Positions 1-17,596 of a stretch of DNA of 43,701 bases are shown here, piece by piece. How positions within the stretch are numbered: position 1 is the first letter of the stretch; each line of letters starts with the position of its first letter. The stretch lies in IMG/VR virus record IMGVR_UViG_2571042636_000008, positions 1-43,701 of that record; one strand, given 5' to 3'. The translations under genes were made by a program, and so were the position numbers. The stretch is from a virus (Duplodnaviria; Heunggongvirae; Uroviricota; Caudoviricetes). The notes beneath the pieces are model-generated. The model did no database searches, was not told the origin of the DNA, and saw only the letters and a list, made by a program, of their open reading frames with translations.

Positions 1-1260
1 TCATATTCCTATCGCCATGCCATGGGGCATGGATGGGGCAAAGTCCGATAATTTCTGGTTCAACATAGCAATCTGATCGCTGCTGCTGTCGGCCATCCAG
101 GCGCCGTAAACATTGAAAACCATCTGGGCGCTGGAGTGTCCCATCTGGCTGGCAATGAAACTCGGATTGGCCCCGGCAGACAGCGACCAGCAGGCGTAAG
201 TGTGTCTCGACTGATACGCCTTGCGGTGCCTTAAACCTGACCGTTTAAGCGCCGCATCCCATGAGTCACCAACTGAATCGGCTTTGTACAGGTAACCTAC
301 GCTGCCACTTTTTTTAACCAACTGAGGATTGAACACAAATGTACAGTCGTGAATGACCGTTCGGCCATACTCCCGCAGTTGTACCTCAACCTGATACTGC
401 CTGCCTAACCTGGTCATTTCCGCCTGGTTCCTCAAAGCGTCAATGGCTGGCTTGATCAGGTGAACGACCCTGTCGGTACCGGCTTCGGTTTTTGGTAGAG
501 TGAAATCACCGAGTTTCGTATAATTCCGGCGTATGGTCATCGTTCCAGTTTTCAGATCTATGTCTTCCCATGCGAGGGATACCAGCTCACCGTGACGTAA
601 TCCTGTGTATACCGCAATTGACCACAGGTTTTTCGTTTGCTGATGCTTGCAGGCATCAATGAAGCGAACGAATTCATCACGTGTGAGCGGATCTGGTTCT
701 ATCCTGGCCCTCTTTAGCGGCTTGATGCCGTTAAACGGGTTTTCACTCACATAGCCATTATCAACAGCGAACTGAAACATACCCGCGATCGTGGTCATGT
801 AGTAGTTTACCGTCACCACACTCAACCCTTTATCCCCCGCCAGCATATCCTTCCTGATATAGAGAAGCTCTTCTCTTGTCACAGACGAAACCAGCTTATT
901 CGCGCCAACCCTCGGCAGCATGCTTCTCACCACCGATTCATACCTGTTTATGGCATTAGCGCAGATCTCCATCCGTTTAAGCTCAAGCCATTTTTCAGAC
1001 AGATCTTTTACGGTGATATCTTTCTTCCCGATGCCGAAAGTTTTCAGATTTGGCGAGTTGGGGAATTGGGCCGCATAGTCAAAGGTCCCCATGCGGATAG
1101 CGAAACAAACTGACGTTCTCAGCTCCCCGGCCACCTTCCTGTTTTTAGCGGTGTCAGGGACACCGAGGTTTTCCCTGACACGCTTACCTTTAAAAATGAA
1201 CCATATGCGGAGTGACTTTCCGTGGTTCTCAACGCCCGTTGGGTATGATTCTTTACTCAT
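1..1260 (-). CDS. int: Tyrosine-type site-specific integrase
   Basis: 419-aa ORF; C-terminal catalytic region with R...HxxR...Y pattern (LRHRKAYQSRHTYA...VYG) typical of lambda-family integrases; stop codon at window positions 1-3. Confidence 0.9.
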   Translation of the reverse strand: MSKESYPTGVENHGKSLRIWFIFKGKRVRENLGVPDTAKNRKVAGELRTSVCFAIRMGTFDYAAQFPNSPNLKTFGIGKKDITVKDLSEKWLELKRMEICANAINRYESVVRSMLPRVGANKLVSSVTREELLYIRKDMLAGDKGLSVVTVNYYMTTIAGMFQFAVDNGYVSENPFNGIKPLKRARIEPDPLTRDEFVRFIDACKHQQTKNLWSIAVYTGLRHGELVSLAWEDIDLKTGTMTIRRNYTKLGDFTLPKTEAGTDRVVHLIKPAIDALRNQAEMTRLGRQYQVEVQLREYGRTVIHDCTFVFNPQLVKKSGSVGYLYKADSVGDSWDAALKRSGLRHRKAYQSRHTYACWSLSAGANPSFIASQMGHSSAQMVFNVYGAWMADSSSDQIAMLNQKLSDFAPSMPHGMAIGI

Positions 1261-1302
1261 TTATCCCTCCCGACGTCCAGGAGCGTTGCAAGTTTACCTG
1301 TT

Positions 1303-1548
1303 TCATACCGCCCGATCACCCAATGGTTGCTTTTGCGCCTGAATCCATGCGTCTACCGCTTTGCGGTTGTACATGCATTCGCTGGTTGGCTTTGGGTCAC
1401 CTTCAGGGGAAACGTGCTTATACTCACGCCCAAGCAGCCAGGATGATTTGCGGGCCCGTGTAATGGTTCCACGTTTCATCCCTGTGACTGCCATCAGCAA
1501 GTCCTCTGAAACCCATTCGTTTGGCTCGATCTGGATTATTGTCTGCAT
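1303..1548 (-). CDS. Excisionase-like small DNA-binding protein
   Basis: 81-aa basic ORF immediately upstream of int on same strand, classic xis position; sequence family not verified. Confidence 0.55.
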   Translation of the reverse strand: MQTIIQIEPNEWVSEDLLMAVTGMKRGTITRARKSSWLLGREYKHVSPEGDPKPTSECMYNRKAVDAWIQAQKQPLGDRAV

Positions 1549-1707
1549 GCATCACCTCTGCCGCACTCTTTAACTGATATAGAATTCCCAGCTACTGGCG
1601 ACGGAATTCATAACCTTAATCGCCATTTCAGCCGTTTCCCTGCTGTCGTAACACTGGAAATACATCTCCTGCCCAGTACGTTTAAGCTTCATCATTACCC
1701 ACATACA

Positions 1708-1926
1708 TCACCTCAGGTGCTTACCACGTTCTTCAAACTCTTCTTGGCAATCAGCGCAGCGCTGACAACCCGCCACCAGTTCCCGGCGCCGCTCGGGTAT
1801 CTCTTCCCCGCAGTCGCGGCAGTGAGTAGCCGAAACCGCCGCATGATTGATGCGCATGTTCTGGATGGTCATTTCCAGCCGGCGCTCTGCCAGCTCGTTG
1901 GCCTGATCGATGATTTCTGCGCTCAT
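1708..1926 (-). CDS. TraR/DksA-family C4 zinc-finger protein
   Basis: 72 aa with CxxC-(17)-CxxC (CRDCGEEIPERRRELVAGCQRCADC) as in phage TraR-like proteins. Confidence 0.7.
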   Translation of the reverse strand: MSAEIIDQANELAERRLEMTIQNMRINHAAVSATHCRDCGEEIPERRRELVAGCQRCADCQEEFEERGKHLR

Positions 1927-2597
1927 GCTGCACCGCCTTCAACGCGCTTAAACGAAATGACCCAAACCCAGGGATTAGCTTTCCAGCTTTCGTCGCCGTA
2001 GATAGATGACCACAACTCAGCAAAGTTGTCGTATGGCGTCATAACCTCGCCGCCGCTATCCGGGTCAGAGTATGTTGGCCGCCACCCAGTAAGCTCCATG
2101 CCTTCAGCTTGAGCATCTTCTTGGCTAATAGCGTTCAGCCGCTCAACGCGCACATCAGTGATTTCCAGCAGAATGCGGCTGGCCCAGCGCGGCATGTGGA
2201 TTGATGGTCGCCAGCAGCAATGCAGTTCATCATCTGCATCGTAAAACTCTGGCGCTGGCACTCCATCAGCCTTGTAAACGCAGAATTCGGGCTTCTCAAA
2301 CGGAGTGGGGTCTTTGCAATAGCTATCCATTAGGTCGTAGTCGAACAGTGGACCCTGAAACGTCTCGCGTACCCAGATACGGTCGCCTGGTTGTCCGTAA
2401 TGGCAAAAATGAGCAGTGGTGCTGCCATGCTTGTGTCTCAGAGATGATTTCCAGCCAATTGCTTCTGGGTTAGGAAAAATGCAACGCTCGATATCGTCTG
2501 CTGGTTGTGGTGCCATAATCCGCCTGGTCTGTGTCTTCCGACCGTCGAGAATGGCCCGCACCATCTCCCCGTTAAAAATCATTCCGCGTTCTTTCAT
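1923..2597 (-). CDS. Hypothetical phage protein, possible ASCH/PUA-like N-terminus
   Basis: 224-aa ORF, 4-nt overlap with neighbours; N-terminal MVRAILDGRKTQTRR resembles the GxKxxExR motif of ASCH domains (weak, from memory). Confidence 0.55.
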   Translation of the reverse strand: MKERGMIFNGEMVRAILDGRKTQTRRIMAPQPADDIERCIFPNPEAIGWKSSLRHKHGSTTAHFCHYGQPGDRIWVRETFQGPLFDYDLMDSYCKDPTPFEKPEFCVYKADGVPAPEFYDADDELHCCWRPSIHMPRWASRILLEITDVRVERLNAISQEDAQAEGMELTGWRPTYSDPDSGGEVMTPYDNFAELWSSIYGDESWKANPWVWVISFKRVEGGAA

Positions 2598-2815
2598 GAT
2601 TCCACTCCATAGCGGCCGCTAAGCCGCCCAATAACACTGACAAATTTCACCAGACTGACACCCATCGGCTTTACCTTCTCGTAGTGCTTGCGAAGGATGG
2701 GGGGGCATACAGCGTTCCACTTCGGTTTAGGCTTTACGTTCATCGCTTTGGTTATCTCTTCTGCGCAGCGACGAGCCTGGGCGCGGAGAGCGTTTTCTTT
2801 TTCTTCTGGCGTCAT
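2594..2815 (-). CDS. Hypothetical small protein
   Basis: 73-aa ORF translationally coupled (4-nt overlaps) on both sides. Confidence 0.45.
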   Translation of the reverse strand: MTPEEKENALRAQARRCAEEITKAMNVKPKPKWNAVCPPILRKHYEKVKPMGVSLVKFVSVIGRLSGRYGVES

Positions 2816-3339
2816 GCAGCCTCCAGATTCCCGATCCGCTTTAACTCAGCCAGCGATACAGTCGTGATGATGTGTCGCGGGGTGATGTACGGACGCCAGA
2901 TAAACAGAAGCGAGCCTTTGGGGTTGCTCCGGCGCTTTCCTGTAACGGATGCCGGAACAAACTGAACACGGCCGCCGGTTATGAGTCTGAGTTCATCAGC
3001 TGATTGCATGGCTGAAATAAACCAGCCGGTAGAAATGTCAGCCGGTAACAACATCACTACGGCCTGAGACTGCGCCCGGGATTGCTCGGCTGCCTTTTCC
3101 ACCCACGGCCCAATATCGGAATAGGGCGGGTTACACCATATTGCCCCGTATGACGTCCATTCACTGTTCAGCGAGTCATCCAGCTCAGTGAGGTAGTGAG
3201 CGCATAGCGCATTACTCTCAGAGGCTGCAGCATCCAGCCAGAAGCCAAACTCGCGGTCGAGCGCATTGAAAATTTCAATCGGTGTTTGCCAGTAGTCACG
3301 TTCATTTTTTGGAGTTTTCGACCCGCCGAAATCAGTCAT
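2812..3339 (-). CDS. Phage DNA N6-adenine methyltransferase (Dam-like)
   Basis: DYWQTP...CNPPYS (NPPY catalytic motif); start moved to internal ATG at 3339 preceded by AGAGGTG RBS; the track ORF extends to 3378. Confidence 0.8.
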   Translation of the reverse strand: MTDFGGSKTPKNERDYWQTPIEIFNALDREFGFWLDAAASESNALCAHYLTELDDSLNSEWTSYGAIWCNPPYSDIGPWVEKAAEQSRAQSQAVVMLLPADISTGWFISAMQSADELRLITGGRVQFVPASVTGKRRSNPKGSLLFIWRPYITPRHIITTVSLAELKRIGNLEAA

Positions 3340-3367
3340 TGCGCACCTCTTTTCGTGTCTGCCTTTC

Positions 3368-3991
3368 TCATGCGGCATGGTCGTGGTTTTTTATGCTGGA
3401 AATTTCTTTCTCCAGCTCTTCCAGGAACTTTTTCACTTCGGACTCAATCTCATTTGCCAGTGCTTCGTCGAAGTGAATGCGCTTTTTGAAATAGGCGAGG
3501 TCTGGTGGTAGACGATCGTCGAAACTAACGAAATCACACCATTTACGCCCTGTGCACATCATCTGAGCGTGCATCTGCAGCAGGTACTGGCGTTTTGGCT
3601 CGCCAGTTTTTAAGGTCTCAAGATGAGTCCAGGTGTTGGGGCACTTAATTTCGATAAGCCCATCACCATTAACAAGCCCATCAGGGCTTGCTGCAAATCC
3701 TGGTATAGATGGGTGATCGATAAGCCCCACTTCAGTGATTTCGGCATCGAACTCATTCAGCGCATACATTTCGCGCGCTACCGGCTCGAGTTCTGTTCCG
3801 CGCATCATTGCGGCGTTGGAGAAACCTTCTTCAAGCTTCCCGGTGAGGCGCTGGCAAATCAGCTCGGCCATGTAGTTCTGTCGGCTTGCGGCATAGCCAG
3901 ACTTGGTTCTGGCCATGACGTCAGCAAGGCGGCTGGCTGTGACTTTTCCGCAGCGAGCGGCAAACCATTCTGGGGTGCGTTGTTCCATCAT
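3368..3991 (-). CDS. YqaJ-like viral recombination exonuclease
   Basis: RTPEWF...GKVTASR...EIKCP motifs typical of the YqaJ/lambda-Exo-like family; adjacent to RecT. Confidence 0.8.
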   Translation of the reverse strand: MMEQRTPEWFAARCGKVTASRLADVMARTKSGYAASRQNYMAELICQRLTGKLEEGFSNAAMMRGTELEPVAREMYALNEFDAEITEVGLIDHPSIPGFAASPDGLVNGDGLIEIKCPNTWTHLETLKTGEPKRQYLLQMHAQMMCTGRKWCDFVSFDDRLPPDLAYFKKRIHFDEALANEIESEVKKFLEELEKEISSIKNHDHAA

Positions 3992-4734
3992 TTATCCTCC
4001 GGCGCTGCGGCATCGACAGGTTCTGCGTTGTCGACTGCAAGGCTCATGTCATACATGCGACGCTTCTCAACCGCGCCGATAACCTGTTTCTCTTCTGCGC
4101 TTAACGCCACCCAGAATTCCTGATACTTAACAGTTCCAAGGCGTGCGGCAGACTCGCCTTTTGCGATCAGTTCCGGGCGGCGATCATCCGATTCATGCCC
4201 TACATGAACCTCTGTCGCACTCCCTTCAATGACACGTTCGGCTTCGTCCTGATCGAAGATGCCAGCAAACCCAAATGCGAGACGCGCACACTGGATCAGC
4301 GTCTTGTGACGAAGCATACGGGTAGGGTGGGACTGCCATGGCTGAGTGTTGCGTTTGCACTCTCCCATGTACTCAGTAACGATGGTCGGGTGTGTGCGGT
4401 CTTTCCGGTATATCTTGCAGGTACACGCGCCTTCTTCCTTGTCGTAGGCAAACTCCATTCCATCAAACTGAGGATGTTCGTTGATGATTCGAGCCCAGCC
4501 GTCAACGCCGACCACTGGAACAATTCCGCCTTTATCCGGGAATGCATAAATCTCCTTCGTCCACGGATTTAGTCCGTACTGGTTGGCGACGATCAGCAGT
4601 GCCGTGAACTGCTCATCAGTGACATTCCCACCCTTAAATGCTGTATTTTTCAGAGTGTTCATCAGGTCAGTTCCGGCATCCATGCCGAGGCGGGAGGCAA
4701 GCTTCCCGGCCATTGTAGAAAGTGCTGTGCTCAT
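3988..4734 (-). CDS. recT: RecT-family single-strand annealing recombinase
   Basis: RecT-like sequence; start chosen at internal ATG (4734) with GAGGGG RBS; the track ORF extends to 4785. Confidence 0.85.
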   Translation of the reverse strand: MSTALSTMAGKLASRLGMDAGTDLMNTLKNTAFKGGNVTDEQFTALLIVANQYGLNPWTKEIYAFPDKGGIVPVVGVDGWARIINEHPQFDGMEFAYDKEEGACTCKIYRKDRTHPTIVTEYMGECKRNTQPWQSHPTRMLRHKTLIQCARLAFGFAGIFDQDEAERVIEGSATEVHVGHESDDRRPELIAKGESAARLGTVKYQEFWVALSAEEKQVIGAVEKRRMYDMSLAVDNAEPVDAAAPEDK

Positions 4735-4750
4735 AGAATTCCCCTCAAAG

Positions 4751-5041
4751 TTAAAACGGGCAGCCGGTGCGGTGGTCCCAGTCATATTCCGCCTGGGCGT
4801 AAGCTACTGCCGAGATGAGATCGTTATATGCCTCGCCAGCTGCATCGCTGCGGAGGCCTTCGTATGGGCTTTTGTCCATCGGCACAGAGAAGCGGAACAG
4901 GCCTGACGGCTCTTTCGGCAGGGCGTCGATAATTTCCTGCGCCCGATCGTCAATCCACTTTTGCTTCTCTTCGGTTAGCGACTGTTCAGCCCATTTCCTT
5001 TCTTCGATAGCGTCGTATGCGCGGTATGCGTTCATAAGCAC
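4751..5041 (-). CDS. Hypothetical protein
   Basis: 96-aa ORF in the early-left operon between the coiled-coil gene and recT. Confidence 0.5.
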   Translation of the reverse strand: MLMNAYRAYDAIEERKWAEQSLTEEKQKWIDDRAQEIIDALPKEPSGLFRFSVPMDKSPYEGLRSDAAGEAYNDLISAVAYAQAEYDWDHRTGCPF

Positions 5042-5042
5042 C

Positions 5043-6014
5043 TCAGTAACTGATACCGGTATGGGGAATGCAGCCGTCTTTAACCGCTGTAAGCACCTCG
5101 ATAGCCTGATCCCGAGTAAGGCTGGTATTGGCCAGAAGAGCTTTGACGATTTCAGTGCCTACAGCCTTGCGGTGCTTAACGTCGGCTTCGCGGCGAGCCT
5201 GCTCATCGGCTTTACGTTTCTCCTCAGCCAGGCGGGCCTGTTCGCGTTGCTCTGCCTCGCGGCGGATGCGATCGGCTTCTTCCTGAGCTTTGCGGCGCTC
5301 CGCTTCGATAGCGGCCTGCTTGTCAGCCTCAGCTTTCTTCTCGGCTGCAATGCGATCTCGCTCTGCCTGCTCAGCTTGTGCTTTCAACACAGCTTCGCGA
5401 TGCGCCGCTTCTTCACGTTCACGCTGTGCGCGCTGCTCAACTTCTCGGGCTGCTGCGGCGGCTGCCATTCGCTTAATTTCTTCTTCATGGGCAATGCGCT
5501 GGCGCTCAGCCTCAGCTGCTTTATCTGCCTGCTCTCGGTCGAAAGCGTCATTCATCAGCAGGGCCATTTCGTGGTCAGACTCAATCCGAGCTGCCAGCTG
5601 CCGATCGAACTCTTCATTCATGGCCAGTGCTTCGACGTGAAGGGCGTTCATGGCTTCTTCGGCCTTAATGCGTTCCTGCTCCGCCTCCCATTCGGTCAAC
5701 GGGCGACGCACTTCATCTTTCAGTGCATCGAGACGCTCACGGACAACGCGGCGGCTTTCATCAATCTGCTTTGGCAGCGCCTTCAGCTCAGCGACCAGGG
5801 CTTTACCTGCGTTGTCGATGTAGGTTTTAGAGCGCGCGACCTTGTGAGCCATGGATGCGATAGCATCGCGGCCTTTTTTGGTGGTCACGTCCGGCACCAG
5901 ACTGCGAGCCTCTTTTTCGATCGCTTCGATAAGCGGATCGAGTTGGTCGTTATTGGTGAAAACCGCCATCGCGTTCTTTTTCTCGATGACGACTAAATCC
6001 ATTATTTCGCTCAT
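5043..6014 (-). CDS. Coiled-coil protein, Ala/Glu/Arg-rich, unknown function
   Basis: 323 aa; long low-complexity charged helical region (AEAERQRIAHEEEIKRMAAAAAAREVEQRAQREREEAAHREA...); antisense ORFs in this region are GC-skew artefacts. Confidence 0.6.
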   Translation of the reverse strand: MSEIMDLVVIEKKNAMAVFTNNDQLDPLIEAIEKEARSLVPDVTTKKGRDAIASMAHKVARSKTYIDNAGKALVAELKALPKQIDESRRVVRERLDALKDEVRRPLTEWEAEQERIKAEEAMNALHVEALAMNEEFDRQLAARIESDHEMALLMNDAFDREQADKAAEAERQRIAHEEEIKRMAAAAAAREVEQRAQREREEAAHREAVLKAQAEQAERDRIAAEKKAEADKQAAIEAERRKAQEEADRIRREAEQREQARLAEEKRKADEQARREADVKHRKAVGTEIVKALLANTSLTRDQAIEVLTAVKDGCIPHTGISY

Positions 6015-6779: not shown

Positions 6780-6900
6780 TGTTTGGATAAATTGAATATA
6801 CAAAATACAATCAATCTTGTAAACACATAAAATTGTATTTTGTTGTATTTAACAACCAAGTGGTTGTTTTTGTTGTTTTTATATTTGTTATTTGGCGTAT
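6780..6900. promoter_or_regulatory. Putative OL/PL operator-promoter region
   Basis: AT-rich; contains TACAATCAATCTTGTA (TACAA-N6-TTGTA) and further TACAA/TTGTA half-sites matching the motif in the cI-cro intergenic region. Confidence 0.5.
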
Positions 6901-6931
6901 TTCAGGAGGGGATGTTGTGTTACAGGCGAAA

Positions 6932-6958
6932 AAAAAGCCCGTCACCGGGCTTTGCAGT
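6932..6958 (-). terminator. Rho-independent terminator downstream of the cI-linked membrane-protein gene
   Basis: Minus strand reads GCCCGGTGACGGGC followed by an 8-T run. Confidence 0.55.
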
Positions 6959-6969
6959 AGTGATAGTGG

Positions 6970-7404
6970 TTATTTTTGCAGGGATTTTATTGCGGAAGGG
7001 GTAAGCATAGAAGGGGGAAGGCTGCGAAGGTTATAAATGTAAGTCATATAGCACCCGCAATCTCTTGGGAGCGGTATGTCATTAAGGAATCCATCAACCC
7101 CGGGCTTTATCAATTTTTTCTTTATCGCCCATGATCCCTTAATTGTATAGATCCTCCCCTCTCGTTCTGCATGCTCTTTGCAGCCCCTTGATTTCCATAC
7201 AGCCGCAAGGGCATTGTTATCAACTGCATAACTGTGATCAGCCGCATTAAGTAGCGTTTTCGCATTTTTAACCGAAGAGTCTATGCTTACTGGTTGATAC
7301 TGTTTTAACTTCTTTTTTGTGGACTGTTTTGTATGCCAAATAAAAACGAACAGGCAACACGTAACTGCTAAGAACGCCCCAAGCAAAAAAGAGAAAAAAC
7401 TCAT
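6970..7404 (-). CDS. Membrane-anchored protein in the immunity region (rexB/sieB position); candidate superinfection exclusion or abortive infection factor
   Basis: 144 aa; N-terminal hydrophobic helix FFSFLLGAFLAVTCCLFVFIW; 20 bp downstream of cI on the same strand, followed by a terminator; more AT-rich than flanks. Confidence 0.6.
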   Translation of the reverse strand: MSFFSFLLGAFLAVTCCLFVFIWHTKQSTKKKLKQYQPVSIDSSVKNAKTLLNAADHSYAVDNNALAAVWKSRGCKEHAEREGRIYTIKGSWAIKKKLIKPGVDGFLNDIPLPRDCGCYMTYIYNLRSLPPSMLTPSAIKSLQK

Positions 7405-16902: not shown

Positions 16903-17347
16903 ATGCCTGCGATCCGGTCAGGGCTCTTGGGTAGAGACGTGCTGCACGACACGTCAAAGCCCTTCCGCGCAGAGCCCTGAACCAGATTGAAGTTACTCAG
17001 CAATAAGAAAACTGCATGTCATCATTTGCTTATATCTTATTGACCAGAAAATTAACATGTTGTTAATCTATTCGTGTGGTGAATCCCCCTATGCGGAGGG
17101 GCGACCAGTCACTTACAGTGATCTGTAAATGCAGCGCGGGCCATGTCGACTGGGACATGCTCACCGGGAGGCACCCGGCACCATAATGCAATGCTACATA
17201 AGCTATTTGATAGTGGGGTTGCCGTTTCGGCTTCTCCAGCTATGTTTAAAAGGTAGTAACGGAAAACGAGCGCTCTCCTGGTAAATCGGAAGCTCGGACT
17301 ATTAGGTGCGCCTCGAACCGTTGAAGAATCAGTATTTCCTACCTTCT

Positions 17348-17439: not shown

Positions 17440-17514
17440 GGGTCAGAAGCACAGCGGTTGTGCGTTCGGCTGTTAACCGAATGGTCGAAGGTTCGAATCC
17501 TTCCTGTCCCGCCA
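17440..17514 (+). tRNA. tRNA-Asn (anticodon GTT), phage-encoded
   Basis: Hand-folded cloverleaf: D stem GCAC/GTGC, anticodon stem TTCGG/CCGAA with loop CTGTTAA, T arm GAAGG-TTCGAAT-CCTTC, 3' CCA; one T:T mismatch in acceptor stem and A at position 8. Confidence 0.6.
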
Positions 17515-17519
17515 AATTA

Positions 17520-17596
17520 GCGCCATTAGCTCAACCGGAGAGAGCAATAGCCTTCTAAGCTATCGGTTTCAGGTTCGAGTCCTGAATGGTGCACCA
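17520..17596 (+). tRNA. tRNA-Arg (anticodon TCT)
   Basis: Hand-folded cloverleaf: acceptor GCGCCAT/ATGGTGC, D stem GCTC/GAGC, anticodon loop CTTCTAA, T arm TCAGG-TTCGAGT-CCTGA, CCA; resembles E. coli argU from memory. Confidence 0.8.

Follow-up and report, generated by a model that had tools for sequence, protein, structure and literature searches.

What are the small genes that lie between the excisionase gene and the recombination genes of this phage, and do they work together? An earlier note, made from the letters alone, described three coupled genes at this place, coding for a TraR/DksA-like protein that would bind RNA polymerase, a PUA/ASCH-like protein and an orphan N6-adenine methyltransferase with an NPPY motif, all with potential host-modulating roles. 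The window, meaning the whole analysed stretch of 43,701 nucleotides, is ~94% identical, in mosaic pieces, to the Klebsiella phages GZ7, ST16-OXA48phi5.2 and RothC, and it has the gene order int-xis-...-exo-bet-gamL. It is a Klebsiella-type lambdoid temperate phage, and the block corresponds to the exo-xis region of lambda. We propose, with a probability of roughly 80%, that the block is the exo-xis accessory part of the early-left operon, a series of short genes, coupled in translation and exchangeable one by one, that would be switched on immediately after infection or induction and whose products would each have their own host or phage target. The predicted roles are those of a Dam methyltransferase of GATC, an Orf61 protein, an ASCH-type N4-acylcytidine hydrolase and an Orf73/TraR protein; the biochemical activities, the target GATC and transcription from pL are drawn from homologues. 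The features of the locus are the following.

1303-1548, minus strand: excisionase (xis), DUF1233, the downstream flank (PF06806, E 2.8e-34; phrog_539)
1570-1704, minus strand: 44-aa ORF between the TraR-like gene and xis (phrog_37627)
1708-1926, minus strand: TraR/DksA-family C4 zinc-finger protein, 72 aa (PF01258, TIGR02419, phrog_54)
1923-2597, minus strand: protein of ASCH fold, 224 aa; YqfB-type GxKxxTxR motif, three large insertions
2594-2815, minus strand: orf61 homologue, 73 aa (phrog_303, E 1.2e-25)
2699-2705, minus strand: C7 homopolymer within the orf61 homologue, whose length variants disrupt the frame
2812-3339, minus strand: phage N6-adenine methyltransferase of the PF05869 'Dam' family, 175 aa, with an NPPY motif
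3368-3991, minus strand: YqaJ/lambda-exonuclease family nuclease (exo), the upstream flank (PF09588, E 2.6e-24; TIGR03033)
6934-6953, minus strand: strong terminator-like hairpin, 8-bp stem and T-run, upstream of the operon segment

The three genes of the earlier note are all present on the minus strand (1708-1926, 1923-2597 and 2812-3339), but the coupled genes number four, the orf61 homologue (2594-2815) having been overlooked. The conserved 44-aa ORF (1570-1704) had escaped it as well, so the block consists of four or five genes. The flanks had been placed correctly, with the DUF1233 excisionase at 1303-1548 and, by family profile matches, the YqaJ-type exo, Bet and GamL together at 3368-5041. 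Domain searches, which the note had called for, bore out its three domain calls: the TraR/DksA-like protein scores above the PF01258 and TIGR02419 cutoffs and has the C4 motif, the PUA/ASCH-like protein has an ASCH β-barrel fold and a YqfB-type octapeptide, and the methyltransferase scores above the PF05869 and TIGR01712 cutoffs and has no restriction gene beside it. The coupling consists of 4-nt ATGA overlaps at three junctions (1923-1926, 2594-2597 and 2812-2815), and the Shine-Dalgarno sequences of the coupled genes sit within the coding ends of the upstream genes. On the minus strand from 1548 to 6014, no sigma-70-like promoter was seen, nor any terminator-like site comparable to the hairpin at 6934-6953, the best having at most 6 pairs, 3 of them G-C. 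No Rfam family matched inside the block, and PADLOC gave no match for the TraR-like, ASCH, orf61 or 44-aa proteins. The 44-aa ORF matches phrog_37627 over its full length (E 1.6e-8), has GAGGTG 4 nt before its ATG and is kept at the same position in three related loci (L007, L031 and L046).

The exo-xis region of lambda and of Shiga toxin (Stx) phages has a conserved five-gene set, orf60a, orf63, orf61, orf73 and ea22 (PMC8614690). The block lies at the same place in the leftward early operon, flanked by exo and xis, and it has homologues of orf61 and orf73 in the same relative order. These two are the only members of the set in the block, where no DUF1317, DUF1382 or Ea22 match was found. In contrast to the lambda and Stx regions, the block lacks orf60a, orf63, ea22 and ea8.5; in their place, orf61 is preceded by a Dam gene and separated from orf73 by an ASCH gene.

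The product of the orf73 homologue, 72 aa long and within the expected range of ~70-75 aa, matches PF01258 (zf-dskA_traR) with an E-value of 3.5e-10 and 40.1 bits (cutoff 24.9), TIGR02419 with 64.2 bits (cutoff 59.7) and phrog_54 with an E-value of 4.7e-25. It shares 52% identity with lambda Orf73 and 51% with the copy of phage VT2-Sakai, and it matches the solved structure of TraR (6n57_M, E 1.9e-6), with TraR-RNA polymerase structures among the matches. It shares with F-plasmid TraR and lambda Orf73 a length of ~72 aa, an N-terminal helix, a C4 zinc ribbon and an acidic C-terminal helix. The zinc ligands C36, C39, C57 and C60 align with the cysteines of TraR and Orf73, and the pair R47 and R48 aligns with R48 and R49 of TraR, which touch the rim helices and β' Si3. 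Unlike these two proteins, it has an additional cysteine at position 54, and its N-terminal motif, E4-I-I-D7-Q-A9, reads ExxDxA instead of DxxDxA, so that Glu replaces the first Asp and the second Asp and the Ala are kept. In the TraR family, the DxxDxA motif extends to the region of the RNA polymerase active site. The ExxDxA variant is a stable subtype that is conserved in Klebsiella prophages. Lambda Orf73 binds RNA polymerase, inhibits rRNA and ribosomal-protein promoters and raises the phage yield, which falls 3-4 fold when orf73 is lost; Orf73 and four other phage homologues bind RNA polymerase, inhibit rrnB P1 and complement a dksA deletion (PMC9239242). In the same work, Orf73 D3N and D6N were assayed on rrnB P1 in vitro, the D3A/D6A double mutant lowered the phage yield, and a homologue without D3 was weaker in vitro (PMC9239242). 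By homology, the 72-aa protein would occupy the secondary channel of RNA polymerase, turn down rRNA and ribosomal-protein promoters and thereby increase the phage yield.

The methyltransferase matches PF05869 with an E-value of 1.6e-67 and 226.9 bits (cutoff 28.1) over profile positions 1-167 of 169, and the TIGR01712 equivalog with 185.5 bits (cutoff 97). The NPPY motif (motif IV) corresponds to residues 70-73, of which, among 59 homologues, P71 and P72 are invariant and N70 and Y73 are each found in at least 90%. D36, in the segment LDAAAS, is invariant in the same set, and its position suggests that it is the SAM-binding acidic residue. Searches of the PDB with the sequences of the Dam and ASCH proteins, and with an ASCH profile, gave no match, and folds were for this reason compared directly; the comparison found a Rossmann-fold methyltransferase structure for the Dam protein. 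The earlier note had preferred the ATG at 3339 over one at 3378, and the choice is upheld by an AAGAGG 6-7 nt upstream of 3339. The start at 3378, giving 188 aa and an 11-nt overlap with exo, was rejected, as it lacks a Shine-Dalgarno sequence, full-length homologues have 175 aa and PGAP annotates a 528-nt gene. The best PADLOC models for the protein are named 'orphan methyltransferase'. No restriction or nuclease gene of a restriction system is adjacent, the neighbours being exo and the orf61 homologue, and among window ORFs of more than 80 aa, no second amino-methyltransferase, with its motif within a methyltransferase family match, was found.

The closest guide to the target is VT2-Sakai orf32, to which the protein is 62% identical and 78% similar without gaps. 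It is the sole methyltransferase annotated in bases 1-30000 of VT2-Sakai, and we take it to be M.EcoVT2Dam, for which GATC is the reported target (PMC6602927). Both proteins have 175 aa and an NPPY motif and both are orphans; they differ in location, the window gene lying in the exo-xis region of the pL operon and the Stx-phage copy in the nin region, flanked by ninB and ninE. The Dam protein of phage T1 and a relative 35% identical to T1 Dam also methylate GATC, the relative with marked off-target activity (PMC4996451). We place these two enzymes and HP1 Dam in the PF05869 family. GATC is thus the most likely target of the window enzyme, as judged from its relatives. An identity of 62% to orf32 is no guarantee of the same methylation target. 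The window has 157 GATC sites, a mild under-representation (observed/expected 0.68), which runs contrary to full self-protection and is uninformative alone. We suggest that the 175-aa enzyme is an orphan SAM-dependent DNA N6-adenine methyltransferase that would keep the fast-replicating phage DNA fully methylated, and full methylation would in turn protect it from nucleases that cut unmethylated GATC and from nicking by MutH.

Two other kinds of adenine methyltransferase were considered as models and rejected. Hia5 and Hin1523, which are non-specific, belong to a different family of ~290 aa and of the alpha class, with DPPY and FxGxG motifs. The Stx phage PA8 enzyme M.EcoPA8orf6770P-PNB-2, an rRNA methyltransferase, is likewise an adenine methyltransferase of a prophage, its gene (PA8 gp5) lying close to the int end, and in some relatives of the window phage an MT-A70 gene of this type takes the place of the PF05869 gene. 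However, the PA8 enzyme belongs to another family, MT-A70, has a DPPW motif and requires a partner protein, and the window has neither an MT-A70 gene nor a partner gene. A phmmer search of the window found no PNB-2-like gene (the 142-aa type of RothC) before the methyltransferase. The latter result also bears on the idea that the PF05869 enzyme acts chiefly on RNA, on adenines of rRNA or mRNA, rather than as a DNA Dam. Its fold match to the PCIF1/DIRS1 type would seem to favour this, but the PCIF1 and DIRS1 methyltransferases have been assigned to a clade that descends from prokaryotic DNA methyltransferases, and the match is therefore read as ancestry. As the Stx-phage homologue and T1 Dam are both reported as GATC DNA methyltransferases, we consider a primary action on RNA very unlikely, and we retain the DNA N6-adenine methyltransferase.

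The 224-aa protein matches Pfam ASCH (PF04266) just at the threshold, and fold comparison revealed an ASCH/PUA-like β-barrel. Clustered at 50% identity, its family, which is phage-associated, has over 45,000 representatives. An hhalign alignment pairs its octapeptide GxKxx[T/S]xR, G19-R-K21-T-Q-T24-R-R26, with G19-R-K21-T-I-T24-I-R26 of E. coli YqfB, an N4-acetylcytidine amidohydrolase. The catalytic set of YqfB (K, T, R and E) is near-invariant, in 97-98 of 99 ASCH homologues. The glutamate, E165, is found in 98 of the 99 and aligns with YqfB E74 in a gapped global alignment, on an equivalent helix by the order of secondary structure; E165 is the putative counterpart of E74 by this gapped alignment and order of elements. 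H70 and Y89 of YqfB are not conserved in the family. In YqfB, each of the substitutions K21A, T24A and R26A abolishes activity, and E74A lowers it 100-1000 fold (PMC6972931). Removal of ac4C from tRNA has been shown for diverse GK[T/E]R-type ASCH proteins (bioRxiv 10.64898/2026.02.27.708502). Some ASCH proteins are nucleic-acid binders or RNases and not amidohydrolases. The window protein differs from YqfB in its length (224 aa versus 103 aa), in three insertions at about 28-69, 79-140 and 167-187, and in the additional invariant residues R25, R77, E78, R141 and E152, which suggest a different or larger substrate.

With K21, T24, R26 and E165 as a predicted catalytic set of the YqfB type, the β-barrel could hydrolyse N4-acylated cytidine in RNA, tRNA or nucleosides. 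A tentative and more specific proposal, which we think possible although the odds are against it, is that the protein is an active YqfB-type amidohydrolase of early infection that deacylates N4-acetyl or N4-acyl cytidine of host tRNA or RNA, or that reverses acetylation by GNAT-type toxins. If so, it would be a phage-encoded RNA-modification eraser or anti-defence enzyme, and the large insertions with the extra invariant Arg and Glu residues would recognise a macromolecular substrate. Alternatively, it could be a non-catalytic reader of modified bases, for example of m6A made by the neighbouring methyltransferase, the two forming a writer-reader pair. Such a pairing is rather improbable, given that about two thirds of ASCH loci have no nearby methyltransferase, and that the methyltransferase, where present, comes from either of two unrelated families. 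Moreover, E. coli prophages have the same Dam gene with DUF1382 and phiTE_072 in place of the ASCH gene, and the near-invariance of the catalytic set would be expected of an enzyme and not of a simple reader.

The fourth coupled gene encodes a 73-aa protein that is 39% identical to VT2-Sakai orf61 (E 9e-15). Its first 4 nt coincide with the end of the Dam gene, and its last 4 nt with the beginning of the ASCH gene. The Stx-phage version of this Orf61 homologue is predicted to be a three-helix protein and may bind DNA. An alignment of its homopolymer tract has C7 in the window and in locus L032, and C6 in loci L031 and L005 and in an E. coli copy that is annotated as frameshifted. Of the IMG/VR contigs that match the exact context, 101 have C7, 19 have C6 and 12 have C8, so that the tract is out of frame in 23% of the matching viral contigs.

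Do these genes make one system? Gene structure, family membership, folds, conserved residues, synteny and mosaicism were established directly here, the last from 80 viral loci with ASCH homologues. Among these, the TraR-like gene is present in 22, orf61 in 17, a PF05869 methyltransferase in 13 and an MT-A70 type in 9, and strict linkage of ASCH to the methyltransferase or to TraR was not found. A linkage of orf61 to the methyltransferase, which held in every orf61-bearing locus of this ASCH-selected sample, was rejected, because lambda and VT2-Sakai break it. Tight packing and ATGA coupling in one operon, and a gene order shared with some relatives (e.g. L031 and L032), would be expected if the TraR-like, ASCH and Dam genes were one co-dependent system of host takeover or anti-defence. 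However, each of the three occurs in many related loci that lack the other two. At this place, lambda and VT2-Sakai carry orf61 and orf73 and no ASCH or Dam gene, the Dam gene of VT2-Sakai being in the nin region. In L031, the flanks are near-identical and the ASCH allele is only ~48% identical, which indicates module swapping. We therefore regard a co-dependent system as extremely improbable. Since the genes of the block assort independently in relatives, they are mosaic modules, neighbours rather than one functional unit, as the exo-xis accessory reading holds.

The earlier observation was thus read correctly, and its cautious suggestions on function are consistent with the known properties of close homologues. 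The block is ordinary for lambda-like prophages: it is a standard exo-xis accessory block in a Klebsiella-type prophage, its genes have studied or named homologues, and as annotated it is of minor significance. The prophage probably equips a host that is already Dam-positive with a second GATC methyltransferase, and this could complicate methylome studies and alter restriction barriers. The TraR/Orf73 homologue predicts a shut-down of ribosome synthesis upon induction that would be independent of ppGpp. Members of the ASCH family are extremely frequent in prophages, and the conserved YqfB catalytic set makes the function of the family biochemically approachable. Two modest leads follow from the locus: the out-of-frame variants of the orf61 C7 tract, and a possible role of the ASCH protein as an N4-acylcytidine hydrolase of the phage.

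On the minus strand, positions 1-6014 of the window form one tightly packed string of genes, with the following features:

1-1260, minus strand, int
1303-1548, minus strand, xis, a DUF1233 excisionase gene (Pfam, PHROGs, NCBIfam)
1570-1704, minus strand, conserved 44-aa ORF
1708-1926, minus strand, 72-aa TraR-like gene (PF01258; TIGR02419)
1923-2597, minus strand, 224-aa ASCH gene (Pfam ASCH; phrog_874)
2594-2815, minus strand, 73-aa orf61 homologue (phrog_303, 1.2e-25)
2812-3339, minus strand, 175-aa Dam gene (PF05869; TIGR01712)
3368-3991, minus strand, exo, a YqaJ exonuclease gene (Pfam, PHROGs, NCBIfam)
3988-4785, minus strand, bet
4751-5041, minus strand, gamL
5043-6014, minus strand, 323-aa coiled-coil gene (phrog_1376, a phrog with no assigned function)

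The earlier note had placed three coupled genes between xis and the recombination genes. All three are present, and their domain calls (TraR-like, ASCH and methyltransferase) were borne out by Pfam, PHROGs and NCBIfam matches, as were the flanks, the DUF1233 excisionase at one end and the recombination genes (YqaJ exonuclease, Bet, GamL) at the other. The coupled genes, however, number four, with ATGA overlaps linking them at 1923-1926, 2594-2597 and 2812-2815; the 73-aa gene that separates ASCH from Dam had been missed, along with the conserved 44-aa ORF. The 323-aa protein, encoded immediately upstream of gamL, is an Ala/Glu/Arg-rich coiled coil that is kept in E. coli and Klebsiella prophages.

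The methyltransferase start at ATG 3339 was correctly assigned, with AAGAGG properly spaced upstream. Full-length database homologues are also 175 aa long, and PGAP gives a 528-nt gene in E. coli prophages. An alternative ATG at 3378 has no Shine-Dalgarno sequence. At the 3' end of the gene, the codons GAG-GCT-GCA-TGA supply the gene that follows with its Shine-Dalgarno sequence and its ATGA overlap, which explains why all ten Dam homologues in our alignment end in EAA (window region 2812-2830), two of them at just 28-30% identity. The products of exo and of the ASCH gene likewise end in AA ahead of an ATGA. We infer that such conserved junctions serve translational coupling; they may also ease module exchange.

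The window comes from a temperate lambdoid phage of Klebsiella type, mosaic in its make-up, with piecewise identity of ~94% to phages GZ7, ST16-OXA48phi5.2, RothC and Mulock. By its exo-to-xis position and two of its genes, the block can be recognised as the counterpart in this phage of the lambda/Stx-phage exo-xis region (PMC8614690). Of 5426 complete E. coli genomes, 87 contain part of the block; in them DUF1382 and phiTE_072 genes take the place of the ASCH gene, flanked by the same Dam, orf61 and TraR-like genes. Inside the block, no sigma-70-like promoter was found on the minus strand and terminator-like hairpins on that strand are few and weak, while a strong one lies upstream at 6953-6934; this arrangement suggests expression within an antiterminated leftward early transcript. 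The strong hairpin follows a 144-aa ORF (6970-7404, minus) and precedes a promoter-like site at 6823-6795 (minus; 10/12 consensus matches) in a low-GC stretch; the layout of 6795-7404 resembles that of a moron within the early-left operon. Elsewhere, on the plus strand, an Rfam STnc100 sRNA match (79.7 bits, 17047-17241) is followed by tRNA-Asn(GTT) and tRNA-Arg(TCT) genes (17440-17596), an arrangement that recalls the VT2-Sakai tRNA cluster following the antiterminator gene Q.

The 72-aa protein matches PF01258 and TIGR02419 (64.2 bits, cutoff 59.7), as well as solved TraR-RNAP structures (6n57, E 1.9e-6). Its identity is 52% with lambda Orf73 and 51% with the VT2-Sakai copy, and it retains the C4 ligands C36, C39, C57 and C60, the Arg pair R47 and R48, and the acidic C-terminal helix. 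RNAP binding, ppGpp-independent inhibition of rRNA and r-protein promoters and complementation of a dksA deletion have been shown for Orf73 together with four other phage homologues, and lambda that has lost orf73 gives a 3-4 fold lower yield (PMC9239242). By analogy, an Orf73-type mechanism is probable, with good but not full confidence because the N-terminal motif is ExxDxA and not DxxDxA. In Klebsiella prophages, ExxDxA is a stable subtype beside the lambda-like DxxDxA one.

The 73-aa protein shares 39% identity with VT2-Sakai Orf61. A published model gives Stx-phage Orf61 three helices and a homeodomain-like fold; the same paper assigns it a pro-lytic role on genetic grounds and notes lambda orf61 as truncated (PMC8614690). 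Our DNA alignment of lambda (L003 3010-3330) with VT2-Sakai (L004 5192-5473) places the lambda frame break at an A7 tract, which is A6 in the intact Stx-phage gene; the C-terminal half of the protein can still be read in another lambda frame. In the Klebsiella-type allele, a C7 tract (2699-2705, minus) sets the reading frame. DNA alignment shows C6 instead in comparison loci L005 and L031 and in the E. coli JNQH498 copy, which is annotated as frameshifted. Among IMG/VR contigs with an identical 26-nt context, 101 have C7, 19 C6 and 12 C8, leaving 23% out of frame. Phase variation may lie behind these length differences, as may repeated decay of a gene the phage can dispense with or, in part, sequencing error.

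The 175-aa protein matches PF05869 (1.6e-67) and the TIGR01712 equivalog (185.5 bits, cutoff 97), a family very common in phages (1930 phage records by tblastn). T1-like phages match the window protein at ~36% identity (tblastn), and T1 Dam is presumably of the PF05869 family. Its gapless alignment to VT2-Sakai orf32 (175 aa) gives 62% identity and 78% similarity; orf32, the only methyltransferase annotated in VT2-Sakai bases 1-30000, we take to be M.EcoVT2Dam. The reported target of M.EcoVT2Dam is GATC (PMC6602927, citing Radlinska and Bujnicki 2001). GATC is also methylated by M.EcoT1Dam and by a 35%-identical relative of it that shows off-target activity as well (PMC4996451). The Stx phage carries the gene in its nin region and the window in its exo-xis region, so the gene has moved between operons. 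It looks like an orphan methyltransferase gene: it sits between exo and the orf61 homologue, PADLOC matches it best to 'orphan methyltransferase' models, and no second amino-methyltransferase was found elsewhere in the window. The 157 GATC sites in the window (observed/expected 0.68) are uninformative. The enzyme might top up methylation of fast-replicating phage DNA, shield it from enzymes that cut unmethylated GATC, or avoid MutH nicking.

Of all the genes in the block, the ASCH gene is the least understood. The Pfam ASCH match of its product lies exactly on the gathering score (21.2 bits), the phrog_874 match is at 2.7e-86, and close homologues bear legacy annotations, for example 'morphogenetic protein' or 'hypothetical protein'. 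An exhaustive search (E <=1e-3) gave 45,258 representatives (50%-identity clusters). An AF2 model based on 99 diverse homologues has high confidence (pLDDT 93.1). Beyond the ASCH fold, the protein consists of three insertions, ~28-69, 79-140 and 167-187. The octapeptide G19-R-K21-T-Q-T24-R-R26 is of the rarer GK[T/S]R type seen in YqfB-like ac4C amidohydrolases and is in register with YqfB GRKTITIR (hhalign); E165 is the putative counterpart of YqfB E74, judging by gapped global alignment and the order of secondary-structure elements. K21, T24, R26 and E165 are found in 97-98 of the 99 homologues. In YqfB, K21A, T24A and R26A are inactive and E74A lowers activity 100-1000 fold (PMC6972931), and 19 diverse ASCH proteins remove ac4C from tRNA according to a 2026 preprint (bioRxiv 10.64898/2026.02.27.708502). 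Together, these data make hydrolysis of N4-acylated cytidine or a related amide the best-supported candidate mechanism. Further invariant residues, R25, R77, E78, R141 and E152, hint at a larger, probably nucleic-acid, substrate. We put at about one in four the chance that the phage encodes here a hydrolase acting on N4-acylcytidine, on tRNA ac4C or on acyl amides.

A census covered 80 viral contigs with ASCH homologues at 41-68% identity, whose ORFs were searched using the window's proteins, counting features within 4 kb of the ASCH gene. A TraR-like gene was near in 22 of the 80 loci, an orf61 homologue in 17, a PF05869 methyltransferase in 13, an MT-A70 methyltransferase in 9 and other methyltransferase-like ORFs in about 5. 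Alternatively, the ASCH protein could be a modified-base reader paired with the methyltransferase (PMC4738411), a reading weakened by the census, in which roughly two thirds of the loci have no methyltransferase nearby. L031 has near-identical flanks and an ASCH allele with just ~48% identity; in ST16-OXA48phi5.2 the same Dam, at 98.9% identity, precedes a gene annotated as Dcm methylase and others; lambda and VT2-Sakai have orf61 and orf73, with neither an ASCH nor a Dam gene at this position. Judged from these comparisons, the genes of the block behave as independently exchangeable modules, and the conserved junctions fit this picture.

A 142-aa gene, absent from the window, lies directly upstream of an MT-A70 or PF05869 methyltransferase gene in four comparison loci (L017, L037, L081, L082) and in RothC (L002:5323-5751, annotated 'alkylmercury lyase'); it is a possible counterpart of PNB-2, the protein that partners the rRNA methyltransferase of PA8. 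Two other loci have long ORFs with a C-terminal PF05869 domain, NPPY near the C-terminus and 5mC-methyltransferase-like motifs (L019:1700-3667, 655 aa; L040:1764-3449, 561 aa). They look like Dcm-Dam fusions; in ST16-OXA48phi5.2, Dcm and Dam are separate adjacent genes.

Overall, the earlier note described the block accurately and interpreted it sensibly. The block is a known kind of region, made of known families in a new mosaic, and it would not surprise a specialist.
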